This document shows positions 12,604 to 39,027 of a DNA stretch of 64,000 bases, one piece after another. This DNA is from Desulfurellaceae bacterium. Its GTDB lineage: Bacteria > Desulfobacterota > Binatia > Bin18. Each line of letters starts with the position of its first letter. The stretch's first letter is position 1. A model generated the notes under the pieces. That model was not told the origin of the DNA, did not search any database, and was given only the letters and a program-made list of their open reading frames with translations. The position numbers and the translations under genes were made by a program. The stretch covers positions 21,463 to 85,462 of the forward strand of contig JAGWBB010000002.1 in assembly GCA_021296095.1 (NCBI GenBank). Reading direction: 5' to 3'.

Positions 12604-12618
12604 TGGTACGGTCTTTGC
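12604..12618 (+). promoter_or_regulatory. Sigma-54-type promoter (TGGTAC-N5-TTGC) upstream of porin-glnK-amtB
   Basis: The GG and GC dinucleotides are spaced as in the TGGCAC-N5-TTGC consensus, about 68 nt upstream of the porin start. Confidence 0.5.
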
Positions 12619-12685
12619 TCATACAGAGTAGACTTCGGGCACAGGGCAGGTGCGTCTGAAGTCACACCAGACCAAGGAGGTAGGA

Positions 12686-14352
<1,667 letters not shown>

Positions 14353-14477
14353 CGGTGCGAGGTGCACCGGCGGGCGGGGCGTACTGCCATACGCCCCGCC
14401 CCTTATCCGTCACACACAGCCCCAAAAGACTGCCCGGACAGGATACACCGGGCGATTATAACCAGGAGGTTCAGACA

Positions 14478-15911
<1,434 letters not shown>

Positions 15912-15992
15912 GACCAAGCCGGAAGGGCGCTCCGGTGACATGTCCCGGCCGCGCCCTTCCCTCGCGTCCTCTCGGTACACGCGTGGCCAAGC

Positions 15993-17183: not shown

Positions 17184-17197
17184 CAACGAGCCTCAAG

Positions 17198-21194: not shown

Positions 21195-22273
21195 ATGCTG
21201 TCCGCAGTAGAACAAACACGTCGTGAGGTGTCACGAGCCATCGCGGCGAAGAGGAAATCGCAACTCGGTCAATTTTTCACCCCGGCGAGAACGGCTCGGT
21301 TCATGGCCGGGCTGTTTGTCCAGACACCGAGCAGCTCCTGCCATCTGTTCGACGCTGGCGCCGGGGTTGGCTCGCTGAGTGCGGCCTTTCTGGAAAGACT
21401 GGCTTCCGGCGGCCTCGACTATCAGCACATCACAATCGACGCTTTCGAGCGTGACGAGTCCCTCCACCCCTATTTGCACAAAACGCTGGAGGAGTACGGG
21501 CAGTCTCTCAATATCGTGTCACACGTCGAGGGGGGCGACTTCATAGAAATCGCGGTTCAGTCGATGTGCGGGAGCCTTTTTGCCCCAGCTCTTCCCCGCT
21601 ATACCCATGCCCTGCTGAATCCGCCGTACAAAAAAATACGGAGCGATTCTGTACACCGCAGGGCCTTGCGTAGAGCTGGTATCGAAACAGTCAACCTGTA
21701 CTCAGCCTTTGTCGCCCTGTCTCTCGCCCTGCTTGCCCATCGCGGTCAGCTTGTCGCAATCATACCGCGCAGCTTCTGCAACGGTCCCTACTATCGACCT
21801 TTTCGCGAGTTCGTTCTGGAGCGCGCGGCAATCCAACACCTGCACTTATTCGCCTCGCGCAACACGGCCTTCAAAGACGACGGCGTCCTGCAAGAAAACC
21901 TCATCCTCAGGTGTGAGCGAGGCGCACCGCAGGGCAAGAGGTCACGGTGACAAGTTCGACCGATGACAGTTTCACCGGTTTACAGACCGATACCTATCCC
22001 TTTGAACGCATTGTCCTTCCAGATGATCGTGAGCGTTTCATCCATATTCCCCACTCGTCCAGACAGCCCATGCTTGAGGAATCGCCGACGGCTCGCTCTT
22101 CCTTGAGCGAGCTTGGCATCAGCGTGTCCACCGGCCCGGTCGTCGATTTCCGTCGAGCGGCACGACGAAGAAAGAAAATTTTTCCAGAGTCGCCCCTGGG
22201 AAAAGCCCCGGAATTCGTGAGTGCCACTCTGCGTCTGGACAGCTTCGGACACCGTCAGGCACTCAGCCTGTGA
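21195..22273 (+). pseudogene. Decayed gamma-class N6-adenine DNA methyltransferase (Eco57I/TaqI-like), frameshifted and 3'-truncated
   Basis: Motif X (FFTPARTARFMA), motif I (FDAGAGVGSL) and motif IV (NPPY). The frame breaks near 21947 and the target-recognition domain is incomplete. Local GC is ~57%, against ~66% for the surrounding genome. Confidence 0.6.
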
Positions 22274-22298: not shown

Positions 22299-24017
22299 TC
22301 AAAACAGAAAGTAGCGCTGGGCCAGCGCCAGCACGTTGGCCGGCTCGCAGGTCAGCAGCTGCCCGTCGGCCCGGACCTCATACGTCTCGGGATTGACCTC
22401 GATGTGCGGCAGCGCCCCATTGTGGATCAGGTCTGTTTTGCCCACCTGCCGGCAGTTGTGAACCGGCGCCAGCCGCTTTTGCAATCCGAGCTGCCCGGCC
22501 AGACCGTTGTCATGCGCCGCGCGGGAGACGAAACTGAGCGACAGGCTGGCCGGGGCACGACCAAAATGGCCGAACATCGGCCGACCGAAGACCGGCTGGG
22601 GGGTCGGAATCGAGGCGTTGGGGTCGCCCATCGCCGCCCAGGCAATAAAGCCGCCCTTCAGAATGAGTTCGGGCTTGACGCCGAAAAACTTGGGCTCCCA
22701 CAACACCAGATCAGCCAGCTTGCCGACCTCGATTGAGCCGACGTGGTCGGCAATGCCGTGGGTCAGGGCCGGGTTGATGGTGTACTTGGCCAGGTAGCGC
22801 TTGACCCGAAAATTGTCGTTGTCGCCGCTCTCCTCGGCCAGGCGTCCGCGCTGGACGCGCATTTTATGGGCCGTCTGCCAGGTGCGGAGAATCACCTCCC
22901 CGACCCGGCCCATGGCCTGGGAGTCGGAGGCCATCATGCTGAAGGCACCGAGATCGTGCAGCACGTCCTCGGCCGCAATGGTTTCCGGCCGGATGCGCGA
23001 CTCGGCAAAAGCCACGTCTTCGGGGACGCCGGGGTCGAGGTGGTGGCAGACCATCAGCATGTCGAGGTGTTCGTCAATCGTGTTGACAGTGAACGGCCGG
23101 GTCGGGTTGGTCGAAGACGGCAAGACGTTGGGAAAACCGCATACCTTGATGATGTCCGGGGCGTGGCCACCGCCCGCTCCCTCGGTATGATAGGTATGGA
23201 TCGTGCGGCCCTTGAAGGCCGCAAGCGTGTCCTCGACAAAGCCGGTCTCGTTCAGGGTATCGGTGTGAATGGCAACCTGGACATCATAGGCGTCAGCCAC
23301 CGACAGGGCGCAGTCAATCGCCGCCGGAGTCGAGCCCCAGTCCTCGTGCAGCTTGAGCCCCATCGCTCCGGCCTCAATCTGCTCGCGCAGCGCCTCGGGA
23401 CGCGAGGCGTTGCCCTTACCCAAAAACCCCAGGTTCATGGGAAAGGCTTCGATTGATTCGAGCATCCGGGCGATATTCCACGGTCCGGGGGTGCAGGTGG
23501 TGGCGTTGGTGCCGGTCGCCGGACCGGTCCCGCCGCCGAACATGGTGGTAATGCCGGAGGCCAGGGCTTCGGTGATCTGCTGCGGACAGATAAAGTGAAT
23601 ATGGGCGTCGATCCCGCCCGCAGTCAGGATCTTGCCCTCGCCGGCCAAAATCTCGGTGCCCGGCCCGATGACCAGTTCGGCCGATACGCCGTCCATCAGC
23701 AGCGGGTTGCCGGCCTTGCCGATGCCGCAGATACGGCCGTCTTTGATCCCCACGTCGGCTTTGACAATGCCCCAGTGATCGAGCACCGTGGCGTTGGTAA
23801 TGACCAGGTCGGGCGCGCCCTGAGCCGAGGTCTGGACCGGCGACTGGGCCATGCCGTCCCGAATCACCTTGCCGCCGCCAAACTTGACCTCGTCGCCGTA
23901 GACCGTGTGGTCGTGCTCGATCTCGACCACCAGCTCCGTGTCGGCCAGCCGTAGCCGGTCGCCGACGGTCGGCCCGAACATCTCGGCATACTGCCGGCGC
24001 TCAATCGTGTGACTCAT
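22299..24017 (-). CDS. ureC: Urease alpha subunit
   Basis: 572-aa protein with the canonical UreC N-terminus ([19 protein letters not shown]) and metal-site His residues. Confidence 0.95.
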
Positions 24018-24026
24018 GCCTGCCTC

Positions 24027-24329
24027 CTAGCGAATCGGCTGATGGACGCTGACCAGCTTGGTGCCGTCCGGGAACGTGGCCTCGACCTGGACCAGATCGA
24101 TCATCTCGGCCACCCCGTCCATGACCTCGGCGCGGCTGAGAATCGTCGCCCCGTAGGACATCAGCTCGGCGACCGACTTGCCGTCGCGCGCGCCTTCGAG
24201 AATCGCGCTGGTAATCAGGGCCATGGCCTCGGGGTAGTTCAGCCTCAGCCCCCGCCCCTGCCGCTCGCGGGCCAGCTGGGCGGCCAGGTAAATCATCAGC
24301 TTTTCCTGTTCGTGGGGGGTAAAGTGCAC
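24027..24329 (-). CDS. ureA: Urease gamma subunit
   Basis: [23 protein letters not shown]... Confidence 0.9.
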
Positions 24330-24403
24330 GGCGCTCCTCCTCGAAGAGGAAACGTGTCAACAGATTCATGTGGTTGGACGACACGTTTCCTCTTTGCTCA
24401 GTG

Positions 24404-25099
24404 CTAGACCGACAAATGCCGGCGGACAATCTCGTCGGTCAGCCCGGCGATGGGTCCCTCGGCGACCACACTGCCCTTTTCCATCACCGCAAAGGCGTCG
24501 GCCACTCGACGGGCAAAGGGCAGCTTCTGCTCAACCAGCAGGATCGTCAGCCCCTGCTCGTGGTTGAGCCGTAACAGAATATCGCCGATCTCCTGAACGA
24601 TATTGGGCTGGATGCCCTCGGTCGGCTCATCCAGAATCAGCAGCTTGGGATCGAGGACCAGGGCACGGCCGATGGCCAGCTGCTGCTGCTGTCCGCCCGA
24701 CAGATCGCCGCCGCGCCGGCCCAGCATCTGTTTCAGGACCGGGAAGAAGTCAAACACCGCGTCTGGAATCGCCCTCCGCCCGTCACGCCGCGCCGGCAGG
24801 CCGATGCGCAGGTTTTCCTCGACGCTCAGCTGGGGAAAGACTTCGCGCCCCTGGGGCACATAGCCGATACCCAGCCGGGCCCGCAGCTCGGCCGGGCGAC
24901 TCGTCAGCTCCAGGTCCTCAAACCGCAGACTGCCCGAGGCGGCCGGCAGGATGCCCATGATCGTCTTCAGCAGGGTGGTCTTGCCCACCCCGTTGCGTCC
25001 CATCAGGCAGGTGCACGAACCGGCCGGAATGGCGAGGCTGACATCCCACAGGATGTGACTCTCGCCGTAGTACTGGTTGAGCTGCTCGATTTGGATCAT
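24404..25099 (-). CDS. urtE: Urea ABC transporter ATP-binding protein UrtE (LivF-like)
   Basis: Walker A GRNGVGKTT and LSGGQQQ signature. Last gene of the urt cluster. Confidence 0.85.
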   Translation of the reverse strand: MIQIEQLNQYYGESHILWDVSLAIPAGSCTCLMGRNGVGKTTLLKTIMGILPAASGSLRFEDLELTSRPAELRARLGIGYVPQGREVFPQLSVEENLRIGLPARRDGRRAIPDAVFDFFPVLKQMLGRRGGDLSGGQQQQLAIGRALVLDPKLLILDEPTEGIQPNIVQEIGDILLRLNHEQGLTILLVEQKLPFARRVADAFAVMEKGSVVAEGPIAGLTDEIVRRHLSV

Positions 25100-25130
25100 C
25101 GCTGTCCACGCCTCTGCGGAACCGTTCCGG

Positions 25131-26003
25131 CTAGGCTCCCAGATACACCTCGACCACCCGAGGGTCGTTCTGCACCTCGGCCATACTGCCCTCGGCCAAG
25201 ACCCGTCCCTCGTGCAAGACCGTCACTTGCCGGGCCAGGCTGCGCACGAACTCCATGTCGTGCTCGACCACCACGACCGTATGCTGGCCGGCCAGCGAGA
25301 CCAGCAGTTCGGCCGTCCGCTCGGTCTCGTGCTGGCTCAGGCCGGCGACCGGCTCATCAACCAGCAGCAGCTGGGGGTCCTGGATCAGCAGCATACCCAG
25401 CTCCAGCCACTGCTTTTGTCCGTGGGACAGCAGGCCGGCCCGGGTGTGGAGGTGGTCGAGCAGGCCGATGGTCTCGGCAGTGGCGCCGATGCGGTCGTGC
25501 TGCTCGCCGCTCAGACGGGCCACCAGGCTGTGCCACACCGTCTTGGTCGCCTGCATGGCCAGCTCCAGGTTCTCGAACACGCTGTGGCCCTGAAACACGG
25601 TCGGTCCCTGGAACTTGCGGCCGATGCCGGCCAGGGCGATCTCGTACTCTGACAGCTGGGTCAGATCCAGGTTGTTGCCGAAAAATACCCGCCCGCTGTC
25701 GGGTCGGGTCCGGCCGGTGACGACATCCATCAGGGTCGTTTTGCCGGCTCCGTTGGGGCCGATCACACACCGCAGCTCGCCGGTGTTGAGATACAGACTG
25801 ATCCCGTCCAGGGCCTTAAAGCCGTCAAAGCTGACGGTCAGGTCTTCGATATACAGGCTCACCCCGTGGCTGGTGTCGATCACGCCCGGCCGGGCGACAT
25901 GGGCCAGCACCGGGCTGCCGCCCTGATCGCGATCAGTCGTCTCGTCTTTGGGCTCCATGCCAGGCTCCAGACTAGGGCCGCGCGGTGCGCTCGGCCGGAC
26001 CAA
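25131..26003 (-). CDS. urtD: Urea ABC transporter ATP-binding protein UrtD (LivG-like)
   Basis: Walker A GPNGAGKTT. N-terminal extension typical of UrtD. Start uncertain (25958 or 26003). Confidence 0.8.
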   Translation of the reverse strand: MVRPSAPRGPSLEPGMEPKDETTDRDQGGSPVLAHVARPGVIDTSHGVSLYIEDLTVSFDGFKALDGISLYLNTGELRCVIGPNGAGKTTLMDVVTGRTRPDSGRVFFGNNLDLTQLSEYEIALAGIGRKFQGPTVFQGHSVFENLELAMQATKTVWHSLVARLSGEQHDRIGATAETIGLLDHLHTRAGLLSHGQKQWLELGMLLIQDPQLLLVDEPVAGLSQHETERTAELLVSLAGQHTVVVVEHDMEFVRSLARQVTVLHEGRVLAEGSMAEVQNDPRVVEVYLGA

Positions 26004-27168
26004 ACAGGCCGATCACCCCGCGCGGCAGAAACAGGGTCACGGCGATGAACAGACCGCCCAGGATGTACAGCCACAGGTCGGGAAAGGCGGCCGTACACCA
26101 GCTCTTGGCCCCGTTAATCAGAAATGCGCCCAGCAGCGCGCCCGACAGGCTGCCGCGGCCGCCGACCGCCACCCAGATTGCCATCTCAATCGAGTTGGAC
26201 GGCTGCATCTCGCTAGGGTTGATAATACCGACCTGAGGCACGTACAAGGCCCCGGCCAGGCCGCACAGGACGGCCGACAGGGTCCATAAAAACAGCTTGT
26301 AGCTGTACGGGTTGTAGCCGCAGAACATCAGGCGGCTCTCGGCGTCACGGACCGCCGTCAAGACCCGGCCGAGCTTGGACCGCACCAGATAGCGGCAGCC
26401 CAGGTAGGCCGCCACCAGGACGGCTGCGGACACCATATACAGCCCGAGCTTGGTCGATTGGGCCTGGAGCGAAAAGCCCACGATGCGCTTGAAGTCGGTC
26501 AGTCCGTTGTTGCCGCCAAAGCCGGTATCGTTGCGAAAAAAGAGCAGCATCAGGGCGTAGGTCATGGCCTGGGTGATGATGGAGAAATACACCCCGCGGA
26601 TGCGCGAGCGAAAGGCAAAAAAGCCGAATATATAGGCCAACAGGCCGGGAATCAGCAGGGCCATGAACAGGGCGAAGCCGAAGCTGCTGAAGCCGTACCA
26701 GTACCACGGCAGCTCCTTCCAATCCAGAAAGACCATGAAGTCGGGCAGCTCGCTGCGATAAACGCCCTCGGTGCCGATGGCCCGCATCAGATACATGCCC
26801 ATGGCGTAGCCGCCCAGGGCAAAGAACACGCCGTGGCCCAGGCTGAGAATACCGGCGTAGCCCCAGATCAGATCGACCGCCAGGGCGACCAGGGCGTAGC
26901 ACATGAACTTGCCGAGCAGGGGGATGAGGTAGTCGGGCAGGTGGAAAGCCGATTCGGCCGGCAACAGGTTCAGGACCGGAACGACGACCAGGGCCAGCAG
27001 CAGCGCCGCCAGGACCAGGCTCCAGCCGCCCCGGGTGTGCAGCCCGAGCAGGCCCGTAGCCGGCAACGGCAGCTCATCCAGCCTCTCTGCGAGCGGCTCG
27101 GCTGGGGTCTTGGTCAGGGAAACAACGGCCACGGGACTAGCCTTCTGCAATCCGGCCCTTGAGCGCAA
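25972..27168 (-). CDS. urtC: Urea ABC transporter permease UrtC (LivM-like)
   Basis: Polytopic membrane protein between urtB and urtD. Confidence 0.8.
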   Translation of the reverse strand: MRSRAGLQKASPVAVVSLTKTPAEPLAERLDELPLPATGLLGLHTRGGWSLVLAALLLALVVVPVLNLLPAESAFHLPDYLIPLLGKFMCYALVALAVDLIWGYAGILSLGHGVFFALGGYAMGMYLMRAIGTEGVYRSELPDFMVFLDWKELPWYWYGFSSFGFALFMALLIPGLLAYIFGFFAFRSRIRGVYFSIITQAMTYALMLLFFRNDTGFGGNNGLTDFKRIVGFSLQAQSTKLGLYMVSAAVLVAAYLGCRYLVRSKLGRVLTAVRDAESRLMFCGYNPYSYKLFLWTLSAVLCGLAGALYVPQVGIINPSEMQPSNSIEMAIWVAVGGRGSLSGALLGAFLINGAKSWCTAAFPDLWLYILGGLFIAVTLFLPRGVIGLFGPAERTARP

Positions 27169-28765
27169 ACAACCCCTGGGGACGCTGCTGGATGAACAGC
27201 ACGACGAAAATCAGCACGCCAATCTTGCCCAGTACGGCGCCGGCGACGGGTTCGAGGAACTTGTTGACCAGGCCCAGGCTCAGCGCCCCGACCACAGTCC
27301 CGGCAATATTGCCCACCCCACCCAGGACAACGACCATGAACGAATCGACAATATACAGGCGGCCCAGCTCGGGACCGACATTGCCGATCTGCGACAGGGC
27401 CACCCCGCCCAGGCCGGCAATACCCGACCCCAGGCCAAAGGTCCACATATCGACCCGGGCGACCGAAATGCCCATGCACGAAGCGATGGGCCGGTTCTGG
27501 GTCACCGCCCGGACCTGGAGACCCAGGCGGGTGCGCTGGAGGATGAGCCACACCGCACCGACCACCAGGGCCACGAAGACGAGGATGGCCAGCCGACTGT
27601 AGGGCAGGACGATGCCGTACAACACCTCGGTGCCGCCCGACAGCCAGGCCGGGTTGGCGACCTGGACATTCTGGGCGCCAAACAGGACACGCACGCTCTG
27701 AATCAGCACCAGGCTGATGCCCCAGGTAGCCAGCAGGGTCTCCAGCGGACGGCCGTACAAGAAACGGATGACGCCGCGCTCCAGGATCATGCCGGCCACC
27801 AGACACACGCCAAAGGCGGCCGGCACGGCCACCACCAGATACCAGTCAAACAGGGCCGGGAAGCGCTCCTGGAATATACCCTGGACCACATAGGTGGCGT
27901 AGGCGCCCAGCATCAGCATCTCGCCGTGGGCCATATTGATCACGCCCATCAGACCGAAGGTAATCCCCAGGCCGAGGGCGGCCAGCAGCAGGACGCTGCC
28001 CAGGCTGAAGCCGTAGAACAGGTTGCCGAAGCCATTAGTCAGAAGCTGGCGGCGCTCAAAACTGGTCAGGACCGTTTGCGCGGCCTGGCGCACCGCCGCG
28101 TCGGGCTCGACAAACGCACCGTCCTGGTCGGTCTCCAGCAGGGCTTCGAGCTGAGGTCTGAGGCCCAGATTCCCGGACTCGCCAATCATCCCAATCGCGG
28201 CCAGACGCTCGGCCCGGTCCTGGCTCTGGAGCTGGAGCTGGGCCAGGGCAACGGCCAGCGCCGTACGCACGTCCGGCGCCTGCTCACGCTCCAGGGCGGC
28301 CTGCAAGGGGCCGACTATCTCGGCCTGCGGCCGCCTGACCAGCTCTTCGGCCGCAGCCAGACGAACCTCGGCCTGCGGAGAGCCCAGCCGCAGCTGGGCG
28401 ATCACCGGCCGCAGGGCGCGGCGAATGGCGTTATTGATCCGGGGCGTGCGCAGACGCGCGGGGTCGAGGCCGACCGGCTCGCCGCTCAGCGCGGCCCGTA
28501 GCCCGTCCTCGTGGCTGATGTAGACATGACCCGCCTCATCGACCCGCAGACGCCGCTCGCCCAGGGCTTCCAGGGCCGGCAGGGCGGCCGGGTCGTTGAG
28601 CCGACCCAGCTCGCCGATGGCCTGTCTGATGTGACTGCGGCTTTTTGCCCCCAGTCCCTTGAGCAGCTCGACCAGCTCGGTGTCGGCCGCCTGGCCGGAG
28701 CTGACAAAGAGAGGGCTGAGCATCACCACGACGCTCAGCCGCAAGAGAAAAGACCAGACCGTCAT
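27137..28765 (-). CDS. urtB: Urea ABC transporter permease UrtB (LivH-like) with an N-terminal ~240-aa periplasmic helical-repeat extension
   Basis: Signal peptide MTVWSFLLRLSVVVMLSPLFVSSGQA, then an Ala/Leu-rich repeat domain, then the LivH-like permease. The ORF could extend to 28951. Confidence 0.75.
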   Translation of the reverse strand: MTVWSFLLRLSVVVMLSPLFVSSGQAADTELVELLKGLGAKSRSHIRQAIGELGRLNDPAALPALEALGERRLRVDEAGHVYISHEDGLRAALSGEPVGLDPARLRTPRINNAIRRALRPVIAQLRLGSPQAEVRLAAAEELVRRPQAEIVGPLQAALEREQAPDVRTALAVALAQLQLQSQDRAERLAAIGMIGESGNLGLRPQLEALLETDQDGAFVEPDAAVRQAAQTVLTSFERRQLLTNGFGNLFYGFSLGSVLLLAALGLGITFGLMGVINMAHGEMLMLGAYATYVVQGIFQERFPALFDWYLVVAVPAAFGVCLVAGMILERGVIRFLYGRPLETLLATWGISLVLIQSVRVLFGAQNVQVANPAWLSGGTEVLYGIVLPYSRLAILVFVALVVGAVWLILQRTRLGLQVRAVTQNRPIASCMGISVARVDMWTFGLGSGIAGLGGVALSQIGNVGPELGRLYIVDSFMVVVLGGVGNIAGTVVGALSLGLVNKFLEPVAGAVLGKIGVLIFVVLFIQQRPQGLFALKGRIAEG

Positions 28766-28817
28766 ACGCGTTCCGCAGCCGGCGGGCCGAGCCGCCTCAA
28801 CGGCTCGGCCGCCGTGC

Positions 28818-30128
28818 TCAGTGCTTGAACTGCGGCGCGGTGCAGTTGCCACACACCCACGGATAGGTCCAGTCGGCGACCTTCTCGGCGCTGTCGGGAA
28901 TGAACGGGCTCCAGGCCTGAGCCCGGATCGGTCCGTCGGTATTCCACACAATATCGAACTGGCCGTCCTCGCGGACTTCGCCGATCAGCACCGGCTTGTG
29001 CAGGTGGTGGTTCTTAGCGTCCATGGTGATGTCAAAACCCGACGGGGAGCGGACGACCTGGCTGCCAACCGCCTGACGCACCGCGTCAACCTCGGTGGTT
29101 TTGGCCTGTTCGACCGCCTGGGCCCACATCTTGACACCGATATAGGTGGCTTCCATGGGATCGTTGGTCACCCGCTTGTCGCCACCCGGCAGGCCATGCT
29201 TTTTGACGTACGCGTCCCACTTGGCGACAAAGGCTGTGTTCTCGGGCGTCTCGACCGACATGAAGTAGTTCCAGGCCGCCAGATGCCCGACCAGGGGTTC
29301 GGTATCAATCCCCCGCAATTCTTCCTCGCCGACCGAGAAGGCCACGACCGGAATATCCTCAGCCTTCAGGCCCTGGTTGGCCAGCTCTTTATAGAACGGC
29401 ACGTTGGAGTCGCCGTTGATGGTAGACACCACGGCCGTCGGCTTGCCGACCGCAAAGCGCTTGATATCGGCCACAATGGTCTGGTAGTCGCTGTGCCCGA
29501 ACGGCGTGTACAGCTCCATGATGTCGGCTTTGGCCACCCCTTTGGATTCCAGAAAGTAGTTCAGGATCTTGTTGGTGGTGCGTGGGTAGACATAGTCGGT
29601 GCCCAGCAGCACAAAGCGCTCGGCGCCGCCGCCGTCTTCGCTCATCAGGTATTCAACGGCCGGAATCGCCTGCTGGTTGGGCGCCGCACCGGTGTAGAAA
29701 ACGTTGAACGAAGACTCCTCGCCCTCGTACTGGACCGGATAGAACAGCAGGCCGTTCAGCTCTTCAAAGACCGGCAGGACCGACTTGCGGGACACCGAGG
29801 TCCAGCAGCCGAACACCACCGCGACCTTGTCCTGCTGGATCAACTCGCGCGCCTTTTCGGCGAACAGCGGCCAGTCCGAGGCCGGGTCAACCACAATCGG
29901 TTCGATCTGACGGCCGAGCACGCCGCCGTTTTCGTTCAGCTCCTCAATCGCCATCAGGGCGACATCCTTGAGCGAGGTTTCGCTGATGGCCATGGTGCCG
30001 CTCAGCGAGTGCAAAATACCGACCTTGATCGGGTCTGCGGCCCAGCCGGCACGCGCCCCGGTCAGCGACGCGACGAGCAGGCCGGCGAGCAGCAGCCCGG
30101 TTTGCCATCCTCTCAACTTCCTTTTCAT
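28818..30128 (-). CDS. urtA: Urea ABC transporter substrate-binding protein UrtA
   Basis: Signal peptide plus the UrtA-like motif KVGILHSLSGTMAISE. Confidence 0.9.
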   Translation of the reverse strand: MKRKLRGWQTGLLLAGLLVASLTGARAGWAADPIKVGILHSLSGTMAISETSLKDVALMAIEELNENGGVLGRQIEPIVVDPASDWPLFAEKARELIQQDKVAVVFGCWTSVSRKSVLPVFEELNGLLFYPVQYEGEESSFNVFYTGAAPNQQAIPAVEYLMSEDGGGAERFVLLGTDYVYPRTTNKILNYFLESKGVAKADIMELYTPFGHSDYQTIVADIKRFAVGKPTAVVSTINGDSNVPFYKELANQGLKAEDIPVVAFSVGEEELRGIDTEPLVGHLAAWNYFMSVETPENTAFVAKWDAYVKKHGLPGGDKRVTNDPMEATYIGVKMWAQAVEQAKTTEVDAVRQAVGSQVVRSPSGFDITMDAKNHHLHKPVLIGEVREDGQFDIVWNTDGPIRAQAWSPFIPDSAEKVADWTYPWVCGNCTAPQFKH

Positions 30129-30155
30129 ACGCAGGACCTCCTTACGTGTGGGTTG

Positions 30156-31484
30156 CTAAAAGAGAATCTGGGTCTGGATCCGAAACCGATTATCGCCCGT
30201 GCTGGTTCTGCTCGGGTCAAACGGATCGCCGTCCAGAAAGCTGTAGTCCAGCTGAAGTTTCACGGCGTGGCCGTACAGGTAGTAGTTGAGGCCGGCCGTG
30301 TACTCGCGCACATCGCCCCGGGTCCGGGGGTTGGAGCGATTGGCATTGTTGTCGAAGTGGAAATCGACGCCCGAGACCCGCCCGGCGAGTTCCAGGCGCT
30401 CGGTCAGGTAATAGCCGAGCTGGCCGTAATAGCCCCAGTCGTGACCGACTTCGCGGCCGATCTGGGCGGCGTTCTGGAAGTTGTTGCGCCGGTAGTAGCC
30501 GGCGGCCTGGACGCTCAGGCCCAGGTAGCGAAAACCGCCGTCAAGGGTCACGTTGGTCGTCCGGTCGCCGGGCCTGACGTTCTGGAAGCCGGAGGCGTCG
30601 TCAACCGGGTTGAAGGCGGCGGCCACGCCCAGCGACAGCTGCGGGGCGGCGGCCGGCGTGGGCGAGCTTTCCAGGTAGCCGTAGGGTTCGAGCAGGTCGT
30701 ACTCCAGGCGGCCCTGCCAGGCGACCTCAGAGCCCACGTTCTGCTGCCCGCCGGCATCCAGGGCGCGGATGCTGTTGGTGACCACCGCGTGGTAGGACAG
30801 CTTGCCGAGACTGCCGCTCAGATTGGCCCCAACCGCGCGCTGGAGGTTGAAGGCATAGTCGGCCTCGGACAGGTCGGAGAACAACAGATTGCCCGGATGG
30901 GTGTAGAACTGTCTGCTGTAGGGCAGGATAAAGCGCCCGGCCTGGACCTTGGCGGAGTCTGAAAAGCTGTACTGCATCCACCAGTCGAGCATGGTCTGGC
31001 GGTTGTTGTTGCCGAAGGTGGTCCCTTCAAACTGGAAGAAGTAGGACACCTTGGGGTCAAACACCGTGCCCGAAAAGGCCAGACGGGCCAGGGCCACGTC
31101 GAAATTGTTGCGGCTGCGGCCCTGTTCCGGGGCCAGAAACGTGTAGCGGCTCTGGACGAAGCCGTTCACGTTGAGCGAATAGCTGTTGTCTTTGCTGCGG
31201 ACGTAGAAGCCGCCGTCGTACACATCGCCGGCCTCCAGGCCGTCGCGGCGCAGCGCCTCGGGTTGGCTATAGCCGTACTCGATCTCTTTTTCGCTTCGCG
31301 TCTGCTCTTTGCCCTCAAGCTCAAGCAGCCGTTTTTCCATCAACTCCATGACCCGACGCTGCTCGGCCAGCTGCTGGCGCAACTCACCAATCTCGTCGGC
31401 CGCTACCCGGCCTGGGGTCCCACCCAGCGCGCCACAGGCGCAACAGACTCCGACAATCAGAGTCTTCCATGTGTGTGTTTGCAT
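30156..31484 (-). CDS. Outer-membrane porin (phosphate-selective porin O/P-like beta-barrel) heading the urt operon; candidate urea/short-amide porin
   Basis: Signal peptide, coiled-coil leader, beta-strand periodicity and a C-terminal F. Confidence 0.65.
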   Translation of the reverse strand: MQTHTWKTLIVGVCCACGALGGTPGRVAADEIGELRQQLAEQRRVMELMEKRLLELEGKEQTRSEKEIEYGYSQPEALRRDGLEAGDVYDGGFYVRSKDNSYSLNVNGFVQSRYTFLAPEQGRSRNNFDVALARLAFSGTVFDPKVSYFFQFEGTTFGNNNRQTMLDWWMQYSFSDSAKVQAGRFILPYSRQFYTHPGNLLFSDLSEADYAFNLQRAVGANLSGSLGKLSYHAVVTNSIRALDAGGQQNVGSEVAWQGRLEYDLLEPYGYLESSPTPAAAPQLSLGVAAAFNPVDDASGFQNVRPGDRTTNVTLDGGFRYLGLSVQAAGYYRRNNFQNAAQIGREVGHDWGYYGQLGYYLTERLELAGRVSGVDFHFDNNANRSNPRTRGDVREYTAGLNYYLYGHAVKLQLDYSFLDGDPFDPSRTSTGDNRFRIQTQILF

Positions 31485-31538
31485 AAATCCCTTCCCTTTC
31501 CGATCGTGACACGAAGCGCTTCAGGCCAGTCGAATAGA

Positions 31539-31553
31539 GCAAAAAGCGGGCCA
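31539..31553 (-). promoter_or_regulatory. Sigma-54-type promoter for porin-urtABCDE-ureAC (minus strand TGGCCC-N5-TTGC)
   Basis: Plus strand reads GCAAAAAGCGGGCCA, the reverse complement of the -24/-12 consensus with correct spacing. About 55 nt upstream of the porin start. Confidence 0.5.
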
Positions 31554-31784
31554 TATCCTGGCAGGTCAGGGCGACGGGGAGCGCGCAACGCTTGACGGCA
31601 GGAGGTCGCATGGCAAAAATACGTGCAGTGAGTAGGGTTACGGGGCCAGGCGGGCAGACGGCTCCTGGCCCGGCGGGCGGGTCGGCGACGGGCCGGCTGC
31701 CCAGGCTTTGGGCATGACATGCTTACTTTGTGGGCATCTTTTCTCCTGGGCCGGGAAAAAGCCCTCCCCCACCGGCCGTCAAAC

Positions 31785-31799
31785 TGGCAAGCTTCTTGC
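31785..31799 (+). promoter_or_regulatory. Sigma-54 promoter TGGCAA-N5-TTGC for ureBGDEF
   Basis: Near-perfect match to the TGGCAC-N5-TTGC consensus, 38 nt upstream of the ureB ATG. Confidence 0.6.
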
Positions 31800-31836
31800 G
31801 CACTTCGACAGCACGACCTAATCAAGAGAGGAAAAC

Positions 31837-32238
31837 ATGGCATCCCAGACACCCACGCCTATCCCCGGCGAGATTCTGCCGGCCACAGGCACGCTCAGCC
31901 TCAACGCCGACCGGCCGAGCCACTCCCTGACCGTGCTGAATAGCGGCGACCGGCCCATTCAGGTTGGCTCGCACTACCATTTCTTTGAGGTCAATCGGGC
32001 GCTGCGCTTCGACCGCGCGGCCGCCTTTGGCCTGCATCTGGACATTCCGGCCGGCACTGCGGTGCGCTTCGAGCCCGGAGCAGAGAAACAGGTCAGCCTC
32101 GTGCCGTTCGGCGGCCAGCGCATCGTGCTGGGTCTGAACAGCCTGACCGAGGGCAGTACGACGGACGCCGAGGTTCGCCGGCAGGCGCTGCGGACCGCCC
32201 GGGAACGCGGCTTTGTGGAGCCCGAGGAGACGCCCTGA
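31837..32238 (+). CDS. ureB: Urease beta subunit
   Basis: IPGEI...LNADRP...[11 protein letters not shown]. Confidence 0.9.
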
Positions 32239-32849
32239 TGCCCGTCGAGGTGCCCCGTCTGGGCATTGGCGGCCCGGTCGGCTCGGGCAAGACGGCGCTG
32301 ATCGAGCGGCTCGTGCCCCGGCTGCAGGACAGCGGCAAACGGGTCGCGGTGGTGACCAACGATATCCTGACCGAAGAAGACGCCCGGCGTTTGCGCAGCC
32401 GAGGGTTCCTGGCCCCGGAACGGATCGTCGGAGTGGAGACCGGGGCGTGCCCGCATACGGTGATCCGGGAAGATCCGACCATGAACCTGGAGGCTGTCCG
32501 CCAGCTGGAAGTCCGCTTTCCCGACCTCGACCTCATCCTGCTGGAGAGCGGCGGGGATAATCTGGCCTCGACCTACTCACCGGAGCTGGCCGATGCGTTC
32601 ATTTTTGTGATTGATGTGGCCGGCGGCGACGATATCCCCCGCAAGCAGGGCCCGGGCATCACCCGCTCCGACCTGCTGGTCATCAATAAAGTCGATCTCG
32701 CCCCGTATGTGGGCGCCAGCCTTGAGGTCATGGCTGAGGACGCCCGGCGTGTACGCGGCCAGCGCCCGGTCGTGTTCACCAACTGCAAAACCGGCCAGGG
32801 CATCGGCGAGGTAGGGGCGTGGATACAGCGCGAGCTGCTGTTCGGCTAG
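32238..32849 (+). CDS. ureG: Urease accessory GTPase UreG
   Basis: P-loop GPVGSGKT and ESGGDNL motifs. Confidence 0.9.
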
Positions 32850-33775
32850 CCGAGCCGAACCCGGCCGACGCGCCGGTTTCGCGCCAGGCGGCGTCTGACG
32901 CCTGGCCGGCCGTCTTCCGCGCCTACGCGGCCGAGCCGCTCGCCCAGCGCCCGGCCGGATCGACCGGAAAGCGGGGGGTATGTCGGCTGGCCTTCGCCGT
33001 CCGCTCGGATACGACCCGACTGGGCCACGCCTTTGTCTCGCATCCGTTTCACTGCACCCGGCCGTGGTATCTCGACCCGGCCGTGCCGGGCATGGCTGTG
33101 GTATACGTCCAAACTCCGGCCGGCGGACTGATCCAGGGCGACCGCGCCGAGCTACGGTTTAGTCTGGACGCCGGCGCCCAGGTTCATATCACCAACCAGG
33201 CGGCCGAGAAGATCCACACCATGACGGCCAACTGCGCCCTCCAGCGCGTCGGCTTCAGCCTCGGCCCCGGGGCCTACGCCGAGTACTGCCCCGAGCCGCT
33301 GATCCTGTTTCCCGGGGCGCGTTTCGGTCAGGCGCTGCGCATCGAGCTGGCGGCCGGGGCGAGTTTTCTGGGAACCGAAGTCATCCTGTCCCGAGCCGCA
33401 GCCGACGGTGCGACTTTTGAGGCGTTCAGCACCAGCCTGAGCGTCGTGGACGCCGAGCGGCGCGTTCTCGTCCGAGACCACGGCCTGGCCCTGCCCGCCC
33501 AACTCCCCCTCGACGGGCCGGGAGTCCTGGGCGGATATCATGTCTGGGGCCAGGCTTTCCTGGTCGGTCCCGACATTCCGGCCGACTGGGCTCACGAACT
33601 CCAGGCCGACCTGCCGGGAACGGTCTGGGGGGTCAGCCTGTTGCCGCAAGAGCGCGGCATCAGCGTCAAGGTCGTCGGCTCGGAGGTGCAAGCCGTCCGG
33701 CGTCTGCTGTTCAGCGCCTGGCAGCTGCTGCGGCTGCGTCATCGGGGCGTGCCGGCGCCCCATTTTCCAAAATAG
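32819..33775 (+). CDS. ureD: Urease accessory protein UreD/UreH
   Basis: Position and UreD-like sequence. Start uncertain. Confidence 0.7.
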
Positions 33776-33795
33776 TCGGCAGACGAGGGAGAACC

Positions 33796-34341
33796 ATGCT
33801 GCGGATACGCAAACGGCTGGGCAATATGCACACCGACCCCGAGGTCGCCGAGCAGGTCCGGCGCTGGCGACAATCGGCCCGGCTGGAGGAAGTCAGCCTC
33901 GACGAGCGCGACGCCCACAAGAGCCGCCTGCGCGTCCAGACCGCCAGCGGTCTCGTCCTGGGTCTGATCCTGCCGCGTGGCACCAGCCTGGGCGAGGGCG
34001 ACGTGTTTGCCCTGGCCGACCAGGACGGGGGAGTGCTGATCCACATCAGTCTCCAGGAAGTCATGGTCCTCACCCCCTCGTCCGAGACCGACCCGGCCGA
34101 ACGGCTCAGGCGCGCGGTGCGGCTGGGCCACGTGCTGGGCAATCAGCACTGGCCGGTGGCGTTTGTCGGAGAGCACATCCTGGTGCCCGTGTCGCTGGAC
34201 CGGGCGGTGATGGAGACGGTGTTACGGACGCACCGCATGACGGACTGTTTTCGCATTCGCTACGAACGCCGTGCCTGGCCGCGCGATCAGCAGGGCGCCT
34301 CGCCAACTCACACCCATGAACGCCCAGATGAACATGGATGA
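33796..34341 (+). CDS. ureE: Urease accessory protein UreE (His-containing C-terminus)
   Basis: UreE fold motifs and a C-terminal HTHERPDEH tail. Confidence 0.75.
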   Translation: MLRIRKRLGNMHTDPEVAEQVRRWRQSARLEEVSLDERDAHKSRLRVQTASGLVLGLILPRGTSLGEGDVFALADQDGGVLIHISLQEVMVLTPSSETDPAERLRRAVRLGHVLGNQHWPVAFVGEHILVPVSLDRAVMETVLRTHRMTDCFRIRYERRAWPRDQQGASPTHTHERPDEHG

Positions 34342-35024
34342 ACATGGACGATAGCGCACTGCTGGCCGCCCTGCAGCTGGCCGACTCGTTTTTTCCGTCC
34401 GGCATGGTCAACCTGTCGCACGGGCTTGAGACCTTTGTGAGCCTGGCACCGGACACCGACGTGCGGCGTCTGCTCGAAGATTATCTCCGCTACAAAGTCG
34501 CCCCGCTCGAACTGCTGGCCTATCTGCACGCCTACCGGGCGGCCGAAGCGGCCGACCTCGAACGGCTGCACGAGGTGGACCGCGCGCTGAGCGCCTCGCT
34601 CCTGCCCCAGGAGTTACGCCAGGCCTCGGCCCGCTCGGGCCGGGCCATGCTGGAAAGCCTGCGCCCGTCGGAAAACGACGCCCTCTTCCGGGCCTTTGTC
34701 AGCGAGATTGACCGGCGCCGCAGCCAGGCCAACGGCCCGGTGTGTCTGGCCGTGGTATGTGTCGGCTGGCAGGTGCCGCAACGGGCCGGCGGGATTGTGC
34801 TGCTGCACAGCTTCATGGTCAGCTTTGTGAGCGCCGCCCTGCGGCTGGGCAGCCTCGGCCACCGCCAGGCCCAGGCCATCCTGCGCGACCTCCGCCCCCA
34901 GCTGTCGTCCCTGGTCGATATGGTCTGGCAACGCGAGCTGGACGAGCTGGGCGGCTTTACCCCCCTGGCCGACATCCGGGCCATGCAGCACGCCTATCTG
35001 CCGGTGCGGCTGTTCAGCAGCTGA
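34338..35024 (+). CDS. ureF: Urease accessory protein UreF
   Basis: LQLADSFFPSGMVNLSHGLE motif. Confidence 0.8.
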   Translation: MNMDDSALLAALQLADSFFPSGMVNLSHGLETFVSLAPDTDVRRLLEDYLRYKVAPLELLAYLHAYRAAEAADLERLHEVDRALSASLLPQELRQASARSGRAMLESLRPSENDALFRAFVSEIDRRRSQANGPVCLAVVCVGWQVPQRAGGIVLLHSFMVSFVSAALRLGSLGHRQAQAILRDLRPQLSSLVDMVWQRELDELGGFTPLADIRAMQHAYLPVRLFSS

Positions 35025-35087: not shown

Positions 35088-35885
35088 TCAGCTGGCCTGC
35101 ATCAGGAAATGCAACACCTCGTTGCGCAGCTGGGTGTACTCCGGCAGATCGATAATCGTCTCCCGTCGCCGCGGCCGAGGAATCCTGACATCTAAGCATT
35201 CGGCCAGACGGGCGGCGGGGCCGGTACTCATCAAGGCAACGCGGTCCGAGAGCAGAATCGCCTCATCCACGTCATGCGTCACCATGAAGACCGTGGTGCC
35301 GGTTGCCTCCCACATCTTCATCAGCTCTTGTTGAATGACACCTCGGGTGAGGGCGTCGATCTGGGCAAACGGCTCGTCCAGCAGCAACACTTTCGGCTGA
35401 ACGGCAAACGCCCGCGCCAGCCCGACCCGCTGCCGCATTCCGCCGGACAAGAAGGTCGGTTTCTTGTCGGCCGCACCGAGCAGGCTCATCATGCTGAGAT
35501 ACTTTTGGGTGTGGCTATCAACCTGCCCTCTGTCCCACTCCGGATAGGCCGCTTTGACCGCAATGCGGACATTGTCAAACGCGGACAGCCAGGGCATCAG
35601 GGCAAAGCTCTGGAACACGACCATCCGGTCCAAGCCCGGCTCGACAACCTCCCTGCCGTCCAGGATCATGCCGCCTTCGGAGGCCGTCTCAAAACCGGCC
35701 AGGATATTGAGCAGCGTACTCTTGCCACACCCCGAGTGACCAACCAGGGTAAGAAATTCTCCCTCCTCGATCTGGAGCGAGACATTCTCAAAGACACAGA
35801 AGGTGTCCGCATTGTGGCCGTTGCCGGCCGCGCCCTCGCGGAGCGGAAAATGCTTGGTCACGTGGTCGATTTCAAGAAAGGACAT
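35088..35885 (-). CDS. ABC transporter ATP-binding protein (NrtD/CynD-type, nitrate/cyanate/bicarbonate family)
   Basis: Walker A GHSGCGKST, LSGGMRQR signature, Walker B LLLDEP. Confidence 0.85.
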   Translation of the reverse strand: MSFLEIDHVTKHFPLREGAAGNGHNADTFCVFENVSLQIEEGEFLTLVGHSGCGKSTLLNILAGFETASEGGMILDGREVVEPGLDRMVVFQSFALMPWLSAFDNVRIAVKAAYPEWDRGQVDSHTQKYLSMMSLLGAADKKPTFLSGGMRQRVGLARAFAVQPKVLLLDEPFAQIDALTRGVIQQELMKMWEATGTTVFMVTHDVDEAILLSDRVALMSTGPAARLAECLDVRIPRPRRRETIIDLPEYTQLRNEVLHFLMQAS

Positions 35886-35974
35886 CCTGACCTCCCTCCA
35901 ATAGGGACGACGCCTGCGCCGTCCCTACCATCCCGGCTAGCGTGCTGGAATGCTCTGGGGAATTGGCAAATGCT

Positions 35975-36970
35975 CTAGTCTGTATATGTCACCAACCGGG
36001 CAAGCCGATTGAAGCCGGAATCGAGCACGATCCCCACCACGCCGACAATCAGAATGGCAAACATCACGCCGGAAATGTTGAGGTTGTTCCACTCAATCCA
36101 GGTCAAATAGCCCATGCCGAGTTCGCCCAGCAGCATCTCGGCAGGCACCACAGCCACCAGGGCACTGCCAAAAGAGATACGCAAACCCGCGATAATGGTC
36201 GGTGCTGCCGCAGGCAGGATGACCATGACGAGGCGGCGGGTCCAAGACAGCTGCAGTAATCGAGCGACCTGGATGTACTCCTTGCGGATCGAACTCACCC
36301 CAAATGCCGTGTTGGCAATGGTTGGCCACAGCGAAGCCATGAAGACCACAAGAATAGCGGTCCAGGTCGGGTCTTGCACGCTGTACAATAAGAGCGGCAT
36401 CCAGGCCAGGGGAGAAATCGGTTTCAAGATTTGAATAAAGGGGTTCAGGGCCTGGTACAGCGGTCGCGACAGACCAATCAGAATCCCGATACACACGGCG
36501 ATCAGCGAGGCCGACATAAATCCGGCCGCAAAACGCGTCACCGTATAGACGACCAGATGACCGACCCCGTGATCGTTGGTGCCCTTCTTGTGGAACGGCT
36601 CTGACAGCTCCTCAACCGTTTTCCTGGCCAGAATGAGAGGGCCCGGGATGCCTCGGATTTTGTCGGGATTGTAGAGGTAGCTTCCCTGCTCGGTCCGGAT
36701 AATATCCCCGTTGAACTCCATGGTCATCAGCTGATCTTGTGTCAGGCCGGTCGGGTCAAACGCGGGCTGAAGGGTCACCACGTGCCAAACCGCCAGAAAA
36801 AAGGCCAGCAGCGCGACCGACAGGAGCCAGGGCTGGCCTTGAAGAGACATTTTTTGTCCCGGCGGCCGCGCACGCGCGTCAGCACCCTGCCTTTCGCCTG
36901 CCTCACCCTCCGCCTGCCGCATGAGCAGGGCCGTTGTGGTGTCTCGCAGGGTTACAACACGTGTGTTCAT
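35975..36970 (-). CDS. ABC transporter permease (NrtB/CynB-type)
   Basis: Polytopic binding-protein-dependent permease. Start uncertain (36970, 36850 or 37006). Confidence 0.75.
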   Translation of the reverse strand: MNTRVVTLRDTTTALLMRQAEGEAGERQGADARARPPGQKMSLQGQPWLLSVALLAFFLAVWHVVTLQPAFDPTGLTQDQLMTMEFNGDIIRTEQGSYLYNPDKIRGIPGPLILARKTVEELSEPFHKKGTNDHGVGHLVVYTVTRFAAGFMSASLIAVCIGILIGLSRPLYQALNPFIQILKPISPLAWMPLLLYSVQDPTWTAILVVFMASLWPTIANTAFGVSSIRKEYIQVARLLQLSWTRRLVMVILPAAAPTIIAGLRISFGSALVAVVPAEMLLGELGMGYLTWIEWNNLNISGVMFAILIVGVVGIVLDSGFNRLARLVTYTD

Positions 36971-36974
36971 AGCC

Positions 36975-37418
36975 TTACCATTTGCGGTACGGGAGAAACT
37001 TGCCACTATAGGTCACAACGACCCGATCCCCTTTCGGATCTTCCTGTTTCTGAATATCGATCTCAAAGTCGATGGCGCTCATGATGCCGTCCCCGAACAT
37101 CTCGTGGATCACGGCCTTCATTGCCGTGCCGTAGACCTGGGTGATTTCGTGAAACCGATAGATGAGCGGATCGACCGGGACCGTGGTGTCCAAAGCCCCT
37201 TTAAGGGGGGGCTCCTGGAGTGGGGCGGTCACCTCTGGGCTTGTGCCCAAGACCTCGGCCAGCTGCCGCGCTTCGGCTGCCGACAGCGTCGCCTGGCCCA
37301 TCAGGGCGGCGGCGACCCAGACCTTGTCTCTGGCCAGGGTCTTTGCCAGGTCGGCGAAAGACAGCCCTTTCTCTTTTTTGGCGGTCAGTAATATGTCCAG
37401 TGCTTCCTGCCGTGTCAT
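36975..37418 (-). CDS. cynS: Cyanate hydratase (cyanase)
   Basis: 147-aa protein with the cyanase C-terminal domain (LIYRFHEITQVYG...FGDGIMSAIDF...GKFLPY). Confidence 0.9.
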   Translation of the reverse strand: MTRQEALDILLTAKKEKGLSFADLAKTLARDKVWVAAALMGQATLSAAEARQLAEVLGTSPEVTAPLQEPPLKGALDTTVPVDPLIYRFHEITQVYGTAMKAVIHEMFGDGIMSAIDFEIDIQKQEDPKGDRVVVTYSGKFLPYRKW

Positions 37419-37439
37419 GTTGTGTCCTCCTTTGCCTGA

Positions 37440-38630: not shown

Positions 38631-39027
38631 GTCATTCCCGCCAAACAGGGCTCGCACCACCGTGCTCTCAACGGCCCGGTCAATGATTTTTTCGGAGGTG
38701 TCAGGCAGAGCCTGGTTGTCCGGCGTGGGCTGCCCACCATGGTCGTGGGCATGCTCAAGCGAGGTATTGGGATCGAAAGGATCTTGTAAGCTGTTATGGG
38801 CCATACACATGCCCTCCAAGCAAGAGGATTCGTTCCGCTAAGAAAGAGAACGTGGGAGAGAAGAACAGCAATTCACGTGCCAAGACACCGCGCAGAGCGC
38901 GGAAAGCCAAAAGACACGGAAAAACAAGGCGTTTACCGCAGGGGAAACGAACACAGATCAAACGAGCCGGGCACAGGGGTGTTTGTGGAGCAACAGAAGA
39001 GCACAAAACTGTTCATTCAATAGGCAG

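Follow-up and report, generated by a model that had tools for sequence, protein, structure and literature searches.

A lineage-conserved split of the urease structural genes between two divergent units in Binatia

How is a three-subunit urease supplied with its beta subunit when ureB stands apart from ureA and ureC? The question is raised by a 64,000-nucleotide stretch from a Desulfurellaceae bacterium of the Binatia (assembly GCA_021296095.1, contig JAGWBB010000002.1, positions 21,463 to 85,462 of the forward strand), hereafter the window. Here ureA and ureC close a minus-strand unit that begins with a porin gene and carries the urea transporter genes urtABCDE, and ureB lies 7.5 kb from them on the opposite strand, heading ureG-ureD-ureE-ureF. 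We consider it rather probable that this is a working Binatia locus for a three-subunit nickel urease, with a gene order fixed in the lineage, divergent sigma-54 promoters that would be activated together, and a mosaic origin; transcript structure, the identity of the activator, the order of assembly and enzyme activity are what we infer from sequence. A preliminary description had pointed out the split, to which the present analysis adds the porin as first gene, conservation across the lineage, conserved promoter boxes with an NtrC-like regulator nearby, and mosaic ancestry.

Split structural genes and their conservation

Genes were called within the 64-kb window from a listing of open reading frames (ORFs) and from Pfam and NCBIfam profile searches, and the calls match the coordinates of the preliminary description. 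The urease genes are as follows (nt, nucleotides).

22299-24017, minus strand: ureC, urease alpha (catalytic) subunit, 572 residues; Pfam Urease_alpha and Amidohydro_1; last gene of the minus-strand unit
24027-24329, minus strand: ureA, urease gamma subunit, 100 residues, GTG start; Pfam Urease_gamma, positions 1-99 of 99; 9 nt upstream of ureC
31837-32238, plus strand: ureB, urease beta subunit of the 'long' form, 133 residues; Pfam Urease_beta, 10-106
32238-32849, plus strand: ureG, nickel-chaperone GTPase; Pfam cobW
32819-33775, plus strand: ureD; Pfam UreD
33796-34341, plus strand: ureE; Pfam UreE_N and UreE_C
34338-35024, plus strand: ureF; Pfam UreF

All seven genes are intact and make up the complete set for a three-subunit nickel urease, with separate gamma, beta and alpha subunits plus UreD, UreE, UreF and UreG. 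The three structural subunits have standard lengths (100, 133 and 572 residues for UreA, UreB and UreC) and canonical domain limits, and each scores above the cut-off of its NCBIfam model (UreC, 983 bits against 680 for TIGR01792; UreA, 164 against 123 for PRK13241; UreB, 148 against 129 for PRK13203). UreC aligns over its full length with residues 3-567 of the Klebsiella aerogenes protein (927 bits), and all nickel-ligand and carbamylated-lysine motifs (K. aerogenes H134, H136, K217, H246, H272 and D360) are kept, including SDSQAMGR. UreB ends in the C-terminal helix of 'long' beta subunits, as in Yersinia and Sporosarcina (Protein Data Bank matches).

The preliminary description had ureC following ureA after 9 nt with no ureB between them, and the sole ureB on the other strand leading ureG-D-E-F. 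The junction sequence (TAG GAGGCAGGC ATG) and the gene calls confirm the former, and a tblastn search confirms the latter within the window: the window proteins found no second ureA, ureB or ureC across the 64 kb, and for ureB none at E up to 10. The canonical contiguous order ureA-ureB-ureC does not occur in the window. Both hiding places that the description had considered for a beta subunit were checked and neither holds one: a cryptic ureB between ureA and ureC is ruled out by the 9-nt gap, the content of which is a Shine-Dalgarno sequence only, and a beta domain fused to UreC or UreA is ruled out by the end-to-end alignment of both with canonical subunits. Nor is UreA a gamma-beta fusion of the Helicobacter type (about 238 residues), the NCBIfam fusion model matching it over its first 100 positions only.

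For the comparison of related loci that the preliminary description had proposed, the 80 loci closest in UreB were taken from a genome collection, and a separate set comprised the 80 metagenome loci closest in UreC. The split layout, ureC<-ureA<-urtEDCBA<-porin diverging from ureB->(G-D-E-F), recurs in 11 other independent assemblies, five of which are contigs of megabase scale, and UreB identity within this group goes down to about 62-68%. It is identical or nearly so in L001, L002, L082, L162, L163, L164, L166, L167 and L169, and L165, L168 and L170 are variants in which ureB still diverges from the porin gene. UreB is identical to that of the window in L001, a Logan contig, and 95% identical in L002, a contig of a Candidatus Binatota metagenome-assembled genome (MAG). 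The order A-B-C is found in 70 of the 80 UreB-closest loci, and ureA and ureC are both missing beside ureB only in L001-L004 and L006; every non-Binatia locus of this set has ureB beside ureA, ureC or both, and the rest of those without A-B-C are cyanobacterial ureA-ureB pairs or are cut by a contig end. Nine further loci found by UreB and UreD context (L162-L170; UreB 61-80% and UreD 49-73% identical to the window) all have ureB divergent from the porin gene, and eight carry the full minus-strand order, L170 being cut after urtA; among these relatives with retrieved context (n = 9, 49-80% identity) the layout is split in all and an ABC operon is found in none. L082, from the metagenome scan (UreC 87% identical), has porin-urtABCDE-ureA-ureC, and the start of its ureB lies at the contig edge. 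A search for UreD homologues gave 98 matches, all at least 49% identical, of which the three sampled (L168, L169 and L170) have the Binatia-type layout; no more distant cluster of ancestral type was found in this way, the word-indexed search reaching no lower than 49% identity.

These recurrences leave a negligible likelihood that the arrangement is an assembly or binning artefact, a chimeric contig joining two unrelated urease fragments. The source is a metagenome, and related contigs do carry wrong taxonomic labels, but 11 independent assemblies from differing samples and platforms, megabase contigs among them (L162, L163, L164 and L167 lie on contigs of 4.3-6.0 Mb), share these junctions, which refutes a chimera, and GC content is uniform across the locus. 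The labels concern L003 (CAMBFS010000028.1, a MAG labelled Klebsiella pneumoniae) and L004 (CAZUFQ010000787.1, uncultured Enterobacteriaceae), both with a Binatia-type ureB-(G)-D-E-F and UreB at 67-73% identity; they are probably mis-binned or mislabelled.

Variation in layout is confined to the accessory side. In L165 ureB stands alone without accessory genes, and a second amide/urea-type ATP-binding cassette (ABC) transporter is inserted next to it (10531-15454); in L170 a formamidase (FmdA_AmdA) and a second transporter of the same type are inserted after ureB-ureG (3205-9619). An ORF of unknown type lies between ureE and ureF in L163. A type I restriction-modification (RM) island separates ureD from ureE in L164 (12063-17620) and L006 (12004-17400), and a second copy of the first 16 ureE codons stands at the insertion point; in L164 ureE-ureF is intact beyond the island.

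Might the split genes instead be redundant and decaying, on their way to loss while another part of the genome supplies the working urease from a canonical ureABC? We regard this as improbable, and the cases that speak for it also tell against a uniformly working locus. The window is 64 kb of the genome, and a second canonical ureABC may lie elsewhere. In L006, ureA is gone and ureC is reduced to relics of its tail. The ureC call of L167, on a 6.0 Mb Binatia contig, is broken into two genes of 253 and 246 residues (456-2174), for which a sequencing error, a frameshift or an in-frame stop could be responsible. L003 and L168 have ureB-ureD without ureG beside ureB. Such decay and disruption indicate that the trait is not under uniform selection. 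Against redundancy stand the seven intact genes with their catalytic motifs, the retention of the layout in 11 assemblies with all nine retrieved UreB/UreD relatives split and none ABC, and pairwise ratios of nonsynonymous to synonymous substitution (dN/dS) of about 0.03-0.16 for ureA, ureB, ureC and ureG across the clade. The ratios are 0.09-0.16 for ureB, which indicates purifying selection, and 0.03-0.11 for the other three genes; dN of ureB is about three times that of ureA and ureC. Because the layout is found across independent assemblies, over considerable divergence in UreB and with purifying selection on ureB, the split is an old, maintained trait of the lineage, not an artefact or a decaying locus.

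L006 itself is a Binatia chromosome (OY761159.2) with a degraded locus at 2578-12051 from which ureA and urt are absent. C-terminal relics of ureC on the minus strand (residues 528-572 at 9904-10038, E = 1e-13, and residues 550-572 at 4142-4210) stand on either side of an inserted RND efflux cassette; the ureB match begins at residue 19, and ureE is cut after 16 codons by the RM island.

Two units and predicted nitrogen control

The genes that precede ureA-ureC on the minus strand are the following.

30156-31484, minus strand: outer-membrane porin of the Porin_O_P family (Pfam PF07396), first gene of the unit
28818-30128, minus strand: urtA, urea-binding protein; NCBIfam TIGR03407, 585 bits against a cut-off of 493
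27137-28765, minus strand: urtB, permease, ATG at 28765; NCBIfam TIGR03409 matches residues 248-538; Pfam HEAT_2
25972-27168, minus strand: urtC, permease; Pfam BPD_transp_2
25131-26003, minus strand: urtD, urea ABC transporter ATPase; Pfam ABC_tran and BCA_ABC_TP_C; orthologues of 271-279 residues, the true start being probably slightly downstream of 26003
24404-25099, minus strand: urtE, urea ABC transporter ATPase; NCBIfam TIGR03410, 332 bits against a cut-off of 286; Pfam ABC_tran

UrtA, UrtB and UrtE are identified as members of a complete UrtABCDE system by equivalog models above cut-off, and UrtC and UrtD by Pfam family and position only. The porin gene keeps its position in all related loci. 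UrtB has an N-terminal extension of about 245 residues with HEAT repeats before the canonical permease core (residues 248-538), a long form common to many urt operons of the G2 type defined below.

The preliminary description had proposed that the transporter genes are co-transcribed with ureAC, and this is upheld as a reading of the gene arrangement: urt and ureA-ureC would share a transcript because they lie on one strand, the 74-nt gap between urtE and ureA contains no promoter-like site that we could find, and the gap is minimal in relatives. There it measures 34, 28 or 20 nt where it exists at all, urtE and ureA otherwise abutting or overlapping (L165); at no more than 34 nt in L162, L165, L166 and L167, it offers no space for a separate promoter of ureA. 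On the plus strand, the stop codon of ureB and the start codon of ureG overlap (TGATG), as they do in L162, L163 and L170, and this recurrence suggests that UreB is translationally coupled with its maturation proteins.

The gap in the window holds a perfect palindrome with arms of 15-16 base pairs (bp) and no T-tract.

24344-24394, unstranded: palindrome AAGAGGAAACGTGTC ... GACACGTTTCCTCTT in the urtE-ureA gap

A role for this hairpin as a urease-specific attenuator or terminator was rejected, given the missing T-tract and a fold that is only marginally better than that of shuffled sequences (z = -2.0). Its arms recur three times in the urt-ure operon of L164 (1842-1856, 2206-2220 and 3824-3838), including the ureA-ureC gap, so it is better taken as a dispersed element of the repetitive extragenic palindromic (REP) kind; the arm AAGAGGAAACGTGTC thus occurs in intergenic gaps of two lineages whose UreB proteins are merely 73% identical. 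A palindrome of the REP or miniature inverted-repeat transposable element type might influence the stability of individual mRNA segments. A GC-rich stem-loop (GGCCGAGCCG...CGGCTCGGCC) at 28776-28815 on the minus strand, directly after the urtA stop and before urtB, has the placement typical of elements that raise expression of the binding protein relative to downstream genes.

Between the porin gene and ureB lies a spacer of 352 nt with two diverging sigma-54 boxes about 230 bp apart. The candidate regulatory elements are these.

31553-31539, minus strand: predicted sigma-54 -24/-12 box TGGCCCGCTTTTTGC, 55 nt before the porin ATG, serving porin-urtABCDE-ureA-ureC
31785-31799, plus strand: predicted sigma-54 -24/-12 box TGGCAAGCTTCTTGC, 38 nt before the ureB ATG, serving ureB-G-D-E-F
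31698-31714 and 31720-31736, unstranded: two TGC-N11-GCA sites (TGCCCAGGCTTTGGGCA, TGCTTACTTTGTGGGCA) between the boxes, centres 22 nt apart, a candidate shared NtrC-type enhancer
15993-17183, plus strand: NtrB-like GAF histidine kinase, paired with the following gene 4 kb from ureC
17198-18592, plus strand: NtrC-like sigma-54 activator (Pfam Response_reg, Sigma54_activat and HTH_8), candidate regulator of both promoters

Each box has one mismatch to the consensus TGGCACG-N4-TTGCW and keeps the GG-N10-GC spacing. In an alignment of the spacer from eight loci, mean column identity is 51%, and 16 of the 22 invariant columns are the GG and TTGC of the two boxes; for the minus-strand box the GCAA and CCA columns are invariant in 8/8 loci, and for the plus-strand box GG and TTGC are invariant. 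The pattern TGGC-N7-TTGC has 7 matches in the window, with 3.6 expected; two are at the ure spacer and one is upstream of a cyanate operon. The invariant boxes and the encoded NtrC-like activator support the two divergent sigma-54-type promoters of the preliminary description, and since the porin gene is the first of the minus-strand unit, the minus-strand promoter is upstream of it rather than of urtA.

In Proteobacteria, urea utilisation genes are sigma-54-dependent and Ntr-regulated as part of the NtrC regulon. The window resembles that regulon in its -24/-12 promoters, upstream TGC-N11-GCA sites and nearby NtrBC-like pair, glnE and amtB, and differs in that its host belongs to the Binatia and its two divergent promoters appear to share their upstream sites. 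The terminal half-sites of the TGC-N11-GCA pair are recognisable in 5-7 of the eight aligned loci (first site TGC/GCG...GCA/ACA, second TGC/TGT/GGC...GCA); the case for a shared NtrC-type enhancer is suggestive only. The activator probably is the NtrC-like protein encoded at 17198-18592, and we infer that it controls the ure promoters; among NCBIfam models it matches ntrC (TIGR01818) best, its 455 bits falling short of the cut-off of 559. Weighing against this regulatory scheme, the sites are short and only partly conserved, and rpoN is not found within the window.

Should the scheme hold, one promoter would drive porin-urtABCDE-ureA-ureC, providing urea uptake and the gamma/alpha scaffold, and the other would drive ureB-ureG-ureD-ureE-ureF, providing the beta subunit and the nickel-insertion machinery. 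When nitrogen is limiting, both transcripts would be fired together by an NtrC-type activator bound between the two promoters. The preliminary description had argued that subunit stoichiometry must be coordinated across two transcripts. The issue is real, but less puzzling than implied: both promoters flank the two NtrC-type sites, so that a single nitrogen-stress activator would switch both transcripts. For the K. aerogenes enzyme, engineered separation in Escherichia coli reportedly yields (UreAC)3 and UreB that bind spontaneously, and UreB is said to be needed for docking of UreD-F-G. If so, exact co-translation of the three subunits would not be needed, and their balance could come from joint activation followed by post-translational assembly, the (UreAC)3 core forming first and UreB docking after.

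The surroundings are consistent with such control. A nitrogen-control cluster at 8653-18592, 4-14 kb from ureC, comprises glnE (glutamine synthetase adenylyltransferase, 8653-11757), an OmpL-like porin gene (12650-13963), amtB (14355-15911) and the genes for the GAF histidine kinase and NtrC-like activator. Converging on ureF, a minus-strand operon at 35088-38882 encodes an NMT1-type binding protein, cyanase (cynS, 36975-37418), a permease and an ATPase; directly upstream of this cyanate-type ABC transporter and cynS operon is a near-consensus sigma-54 box, TGGCACGTGAATTGC (38868-38882, minus strand), and further upstream an AlgE-like porin gene (39155-40699). With the NtrBC-like pair, glnE, amtB and a cyn operon with a third sigma-54 box near the ure locus, the neighbourhood reads as a nitrogen-scavenging island with predicted sigma-54 promoters. 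Farther off, the segment 52000-56000 has a GC content of 0.52-0.55, compared with about 0.64 elsewhere in the window, and a truncated Tn3-family transposase gene (54596-55330); it is probably a mobile-element remnant.

Ancestry of the two units

Where the two units came from was addressed by dividing the comparison loci by UreC into G1, about 60% identical to the window, with orders ureABC-G-D-(E-F) or ureE-F-A-B-C-G-D, and G2, at least 66% identical, with orders urtABCDE-(D)-ABC-... or ABC-(E)FGD. By tblastn bit score UreA, UreC and UrtA-D are closer to G2, and UreB, UreG, UreD, UreE and UreF to G1. Profile log-odds, positive for G1 and negative for G2, with cross-validated controls gave the following.

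UreG: +32 to +47 bits, G1; controls misassigned 0/96
UreD: +35 to +60 bits, G1; controls misassigned 2/56
UreF: +8 to +24 bits, G1; controls misassigned 5/83
UreC: -124 to -159 bits, G2; controls misassigned 3/119
UreA: -5 to -10 bits, between the two control ranges, weakly G2; controls misassigned 1/119
UreB: +21 to +30 bits, leaning to G1 (G1 median +27.8, G2 maximum +23.7); controls misassigned 26/119

Neighbour-joining (NJ) bootstraps place UreG (100%), UreD (91%) and UreF (95%) with G1 neighbours and UreC (84%) and UreA (80%) with G2. Among the loci sampled, ureG-ureD directly after the structural genes is confined to G1 clusters, with G-D-E-F in L014, L023 and L030. With UreG, UreD and UreF grouping with G1 and UreC and UreA with G2, the locus is probably a mosaic, its two operons differing in ancestry: UreC, UreA and Urt appear to go with G2, and UreG, UreD and UreF with G1. 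The ureA-ureC-urt unit would then derive from one cluster class, and the accessory unit, possibly with ureB, from a class ordered ABC-G-D-(E-F). A rank correlation of UreB with UreC identities was discarded as a test of discordance because similarity to the window had governed the choice of loci (collider bias), and was replaced by the group-profile scores and NJ bootstraps.

UreB leans to G1, and here several points count against the mosaic. Its NJ bootstraps are divided (23% G1, 42% G2 and 34% mixed), and its hidden Markov model test is the one that misassigns 26 of 119 controls; the choice of comparison loci by similarity to the window UreB and UreC biases raw comparisons of these two proteins, not of the accessory proteins. 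No clear signature residues or indels that would assign UreB to a class were found in the UreB alignment. More generally, the host lineage is uncultured, and expression and activity of the urease are predictions from sequence alone.

A bolder form of the mosaic, which we put forward tentatively and as the less probable case, is a natural hybrid enzyme in which an alpha/gamma core of one lineage is served by a UreB retained with the UreG-D-E-F maturation machinery of another. UreB would have been kept with the accessory proteins as the adaptor for their recognition of the apoenzyme, a second cluster having been acquired and reciprocal gene loss then having sorted the genes by interaction partner. 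If this were true, gene order would be a record of the contacts in urease maturation, those of UreB with UreD/F/G being lineage-specific and those of UreB with UreC/UreA interchangeable.

Unlikely, in our estimation, is a single origin, in which one ancestral Binatia cluster was reshuffled, ureB being relocated in front of the accessory genes or ureA-ureC behind urtE, and no second cluster was involved. The failure of the bootstraps to place UreB with G1, the weak G2 likeness of UreA (-5 to -10 bits) and the confinement of all genes to one 13 kb locus agree with it, as do the local rearrangements indicated by a ureF-like relic by the ureC stop. It accords poorly with the grouping of UreG, UreD and UreF with G1 at 91-100% bootstrap and of UreC with G2 at 84%, and with the restriction of the G-D-E-F order to G1-type clusters in the sample.

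The relic (FVSATLRLDSFGHRQA, 22214-22261, plus strand) lies 38 nt past the ureC stop and matches UreF residues 163-178 (13/16 amino acids, 38/48 nt; tblastn E = 0.004). Degraded ORFs of an Eco57I-like RM methylase (21195-22273) carry it, fused, at their end, and a past rearrangement may have left it as a scar. No such relic was found downstream of ureC in seven Binatia-type loci (L082 and L162-L167), and tblastx found no homology between the RM fragments to the left of ureC and the RM islands of L164 and L006.

Relation to known urease systems and significance

The window encodes the same seven proteins as the K. aerogenes ureDABCEFG and Bacillus/Sporosarcina ureABCEFGD operons. In those canonical operons the structural genes are contiguous, whereas here ureB is on the opposite strand heading ureGDEF, ureA-ureC is appended to porin-urtABCDE, and the promoters are of the sigma-54 type. 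Nearest in their accessory proteins are the G1 clusters, and the G-D-E-F order is identical in those arranged as ureABC-G-D-E-F, of cyanobacterial MAGs or genomes (L014 and L023) and of an uncultured bacterium (L030); other G1 clusters, in Rhizobiales and Pseudomonas (L009-L013, L021 and L032), are ordered ureE-F-A-B-C-G-D. The G1 clusters keep their own ureA and ureC, whereas those of the window are of the other class.

Non-contiguous urease genes occur elsewhere. Six or seven of the 80 UreC-closest metagenome loci are non-contiguous, with a solitary ureC in L092, L107, L110 and L161, ureC-ureG in L145 and a scrambled order in L130. Also among them is L118, a soil metagenome contig (UreC 71% identical) that has an independent ureD-ureA-ureC (6505-9449) with a 10-nt ureA-ureC gap, adjoining a cytochrome P460 gene; neither ureB nor any further accessory gene lies within 18 kb of it. 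In cyanobacteria, all ure genes are dispersed in Synechocystis PCC 6803, the order is ureABGDEFC in Cyanothece PCC 7822, and in Anabaena PCC 7120 ureDAB is followed by ureC after an unrelated gene (PMC6737895). These are precedents for making the structural subunits from separate transcripts, as would be the case in the window; in the cyanobacteria, however, the genes are dispersed over the chromosome or it is ureC that is separated, whereas the window has a single divergent locus in which ureB is separated and ureA abuts ureC. A full-text literature search (Binatota and urease) returned no published description of the split locus in Binatota.

The layout is unusual but conserved, and it probably works; it does not amount to a novel type of system. 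Separation of urease structural genes has been recorded before; what appears specific here is that ureA-ureC ends a urt operon, that ureB heads a divergent accessory operon, and that the arrangement is conserved at the level of a phylum. The partition is the same as that of the modules reportedly separated by engineering in K. aerogenes, but in Binatia it is a natural genomic arrangement, known here from the genes.

Binatia are widespread in soils and sediments, and would be miscalled by metabolic surveys and annotation pipelines that look for a contiguous ureABC when scoring urease; their acquisition of urea, cyanate and ammonium would be under control of the sigma-54/NtrC type. If the mosaic origin holds for ureB, the locus would offer a ready test of which subunit contacts set accessory-protein specificity. 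It is a natural, conserved case in which the beta subunit of urease is grouped genetically with the nickel-insertion proteins and not with the catalytic core, a grouping that parallels the reported biochemistry, in which (UreAC)3 and UreB can be separated as modules and the accessory proteins dock through UreB.

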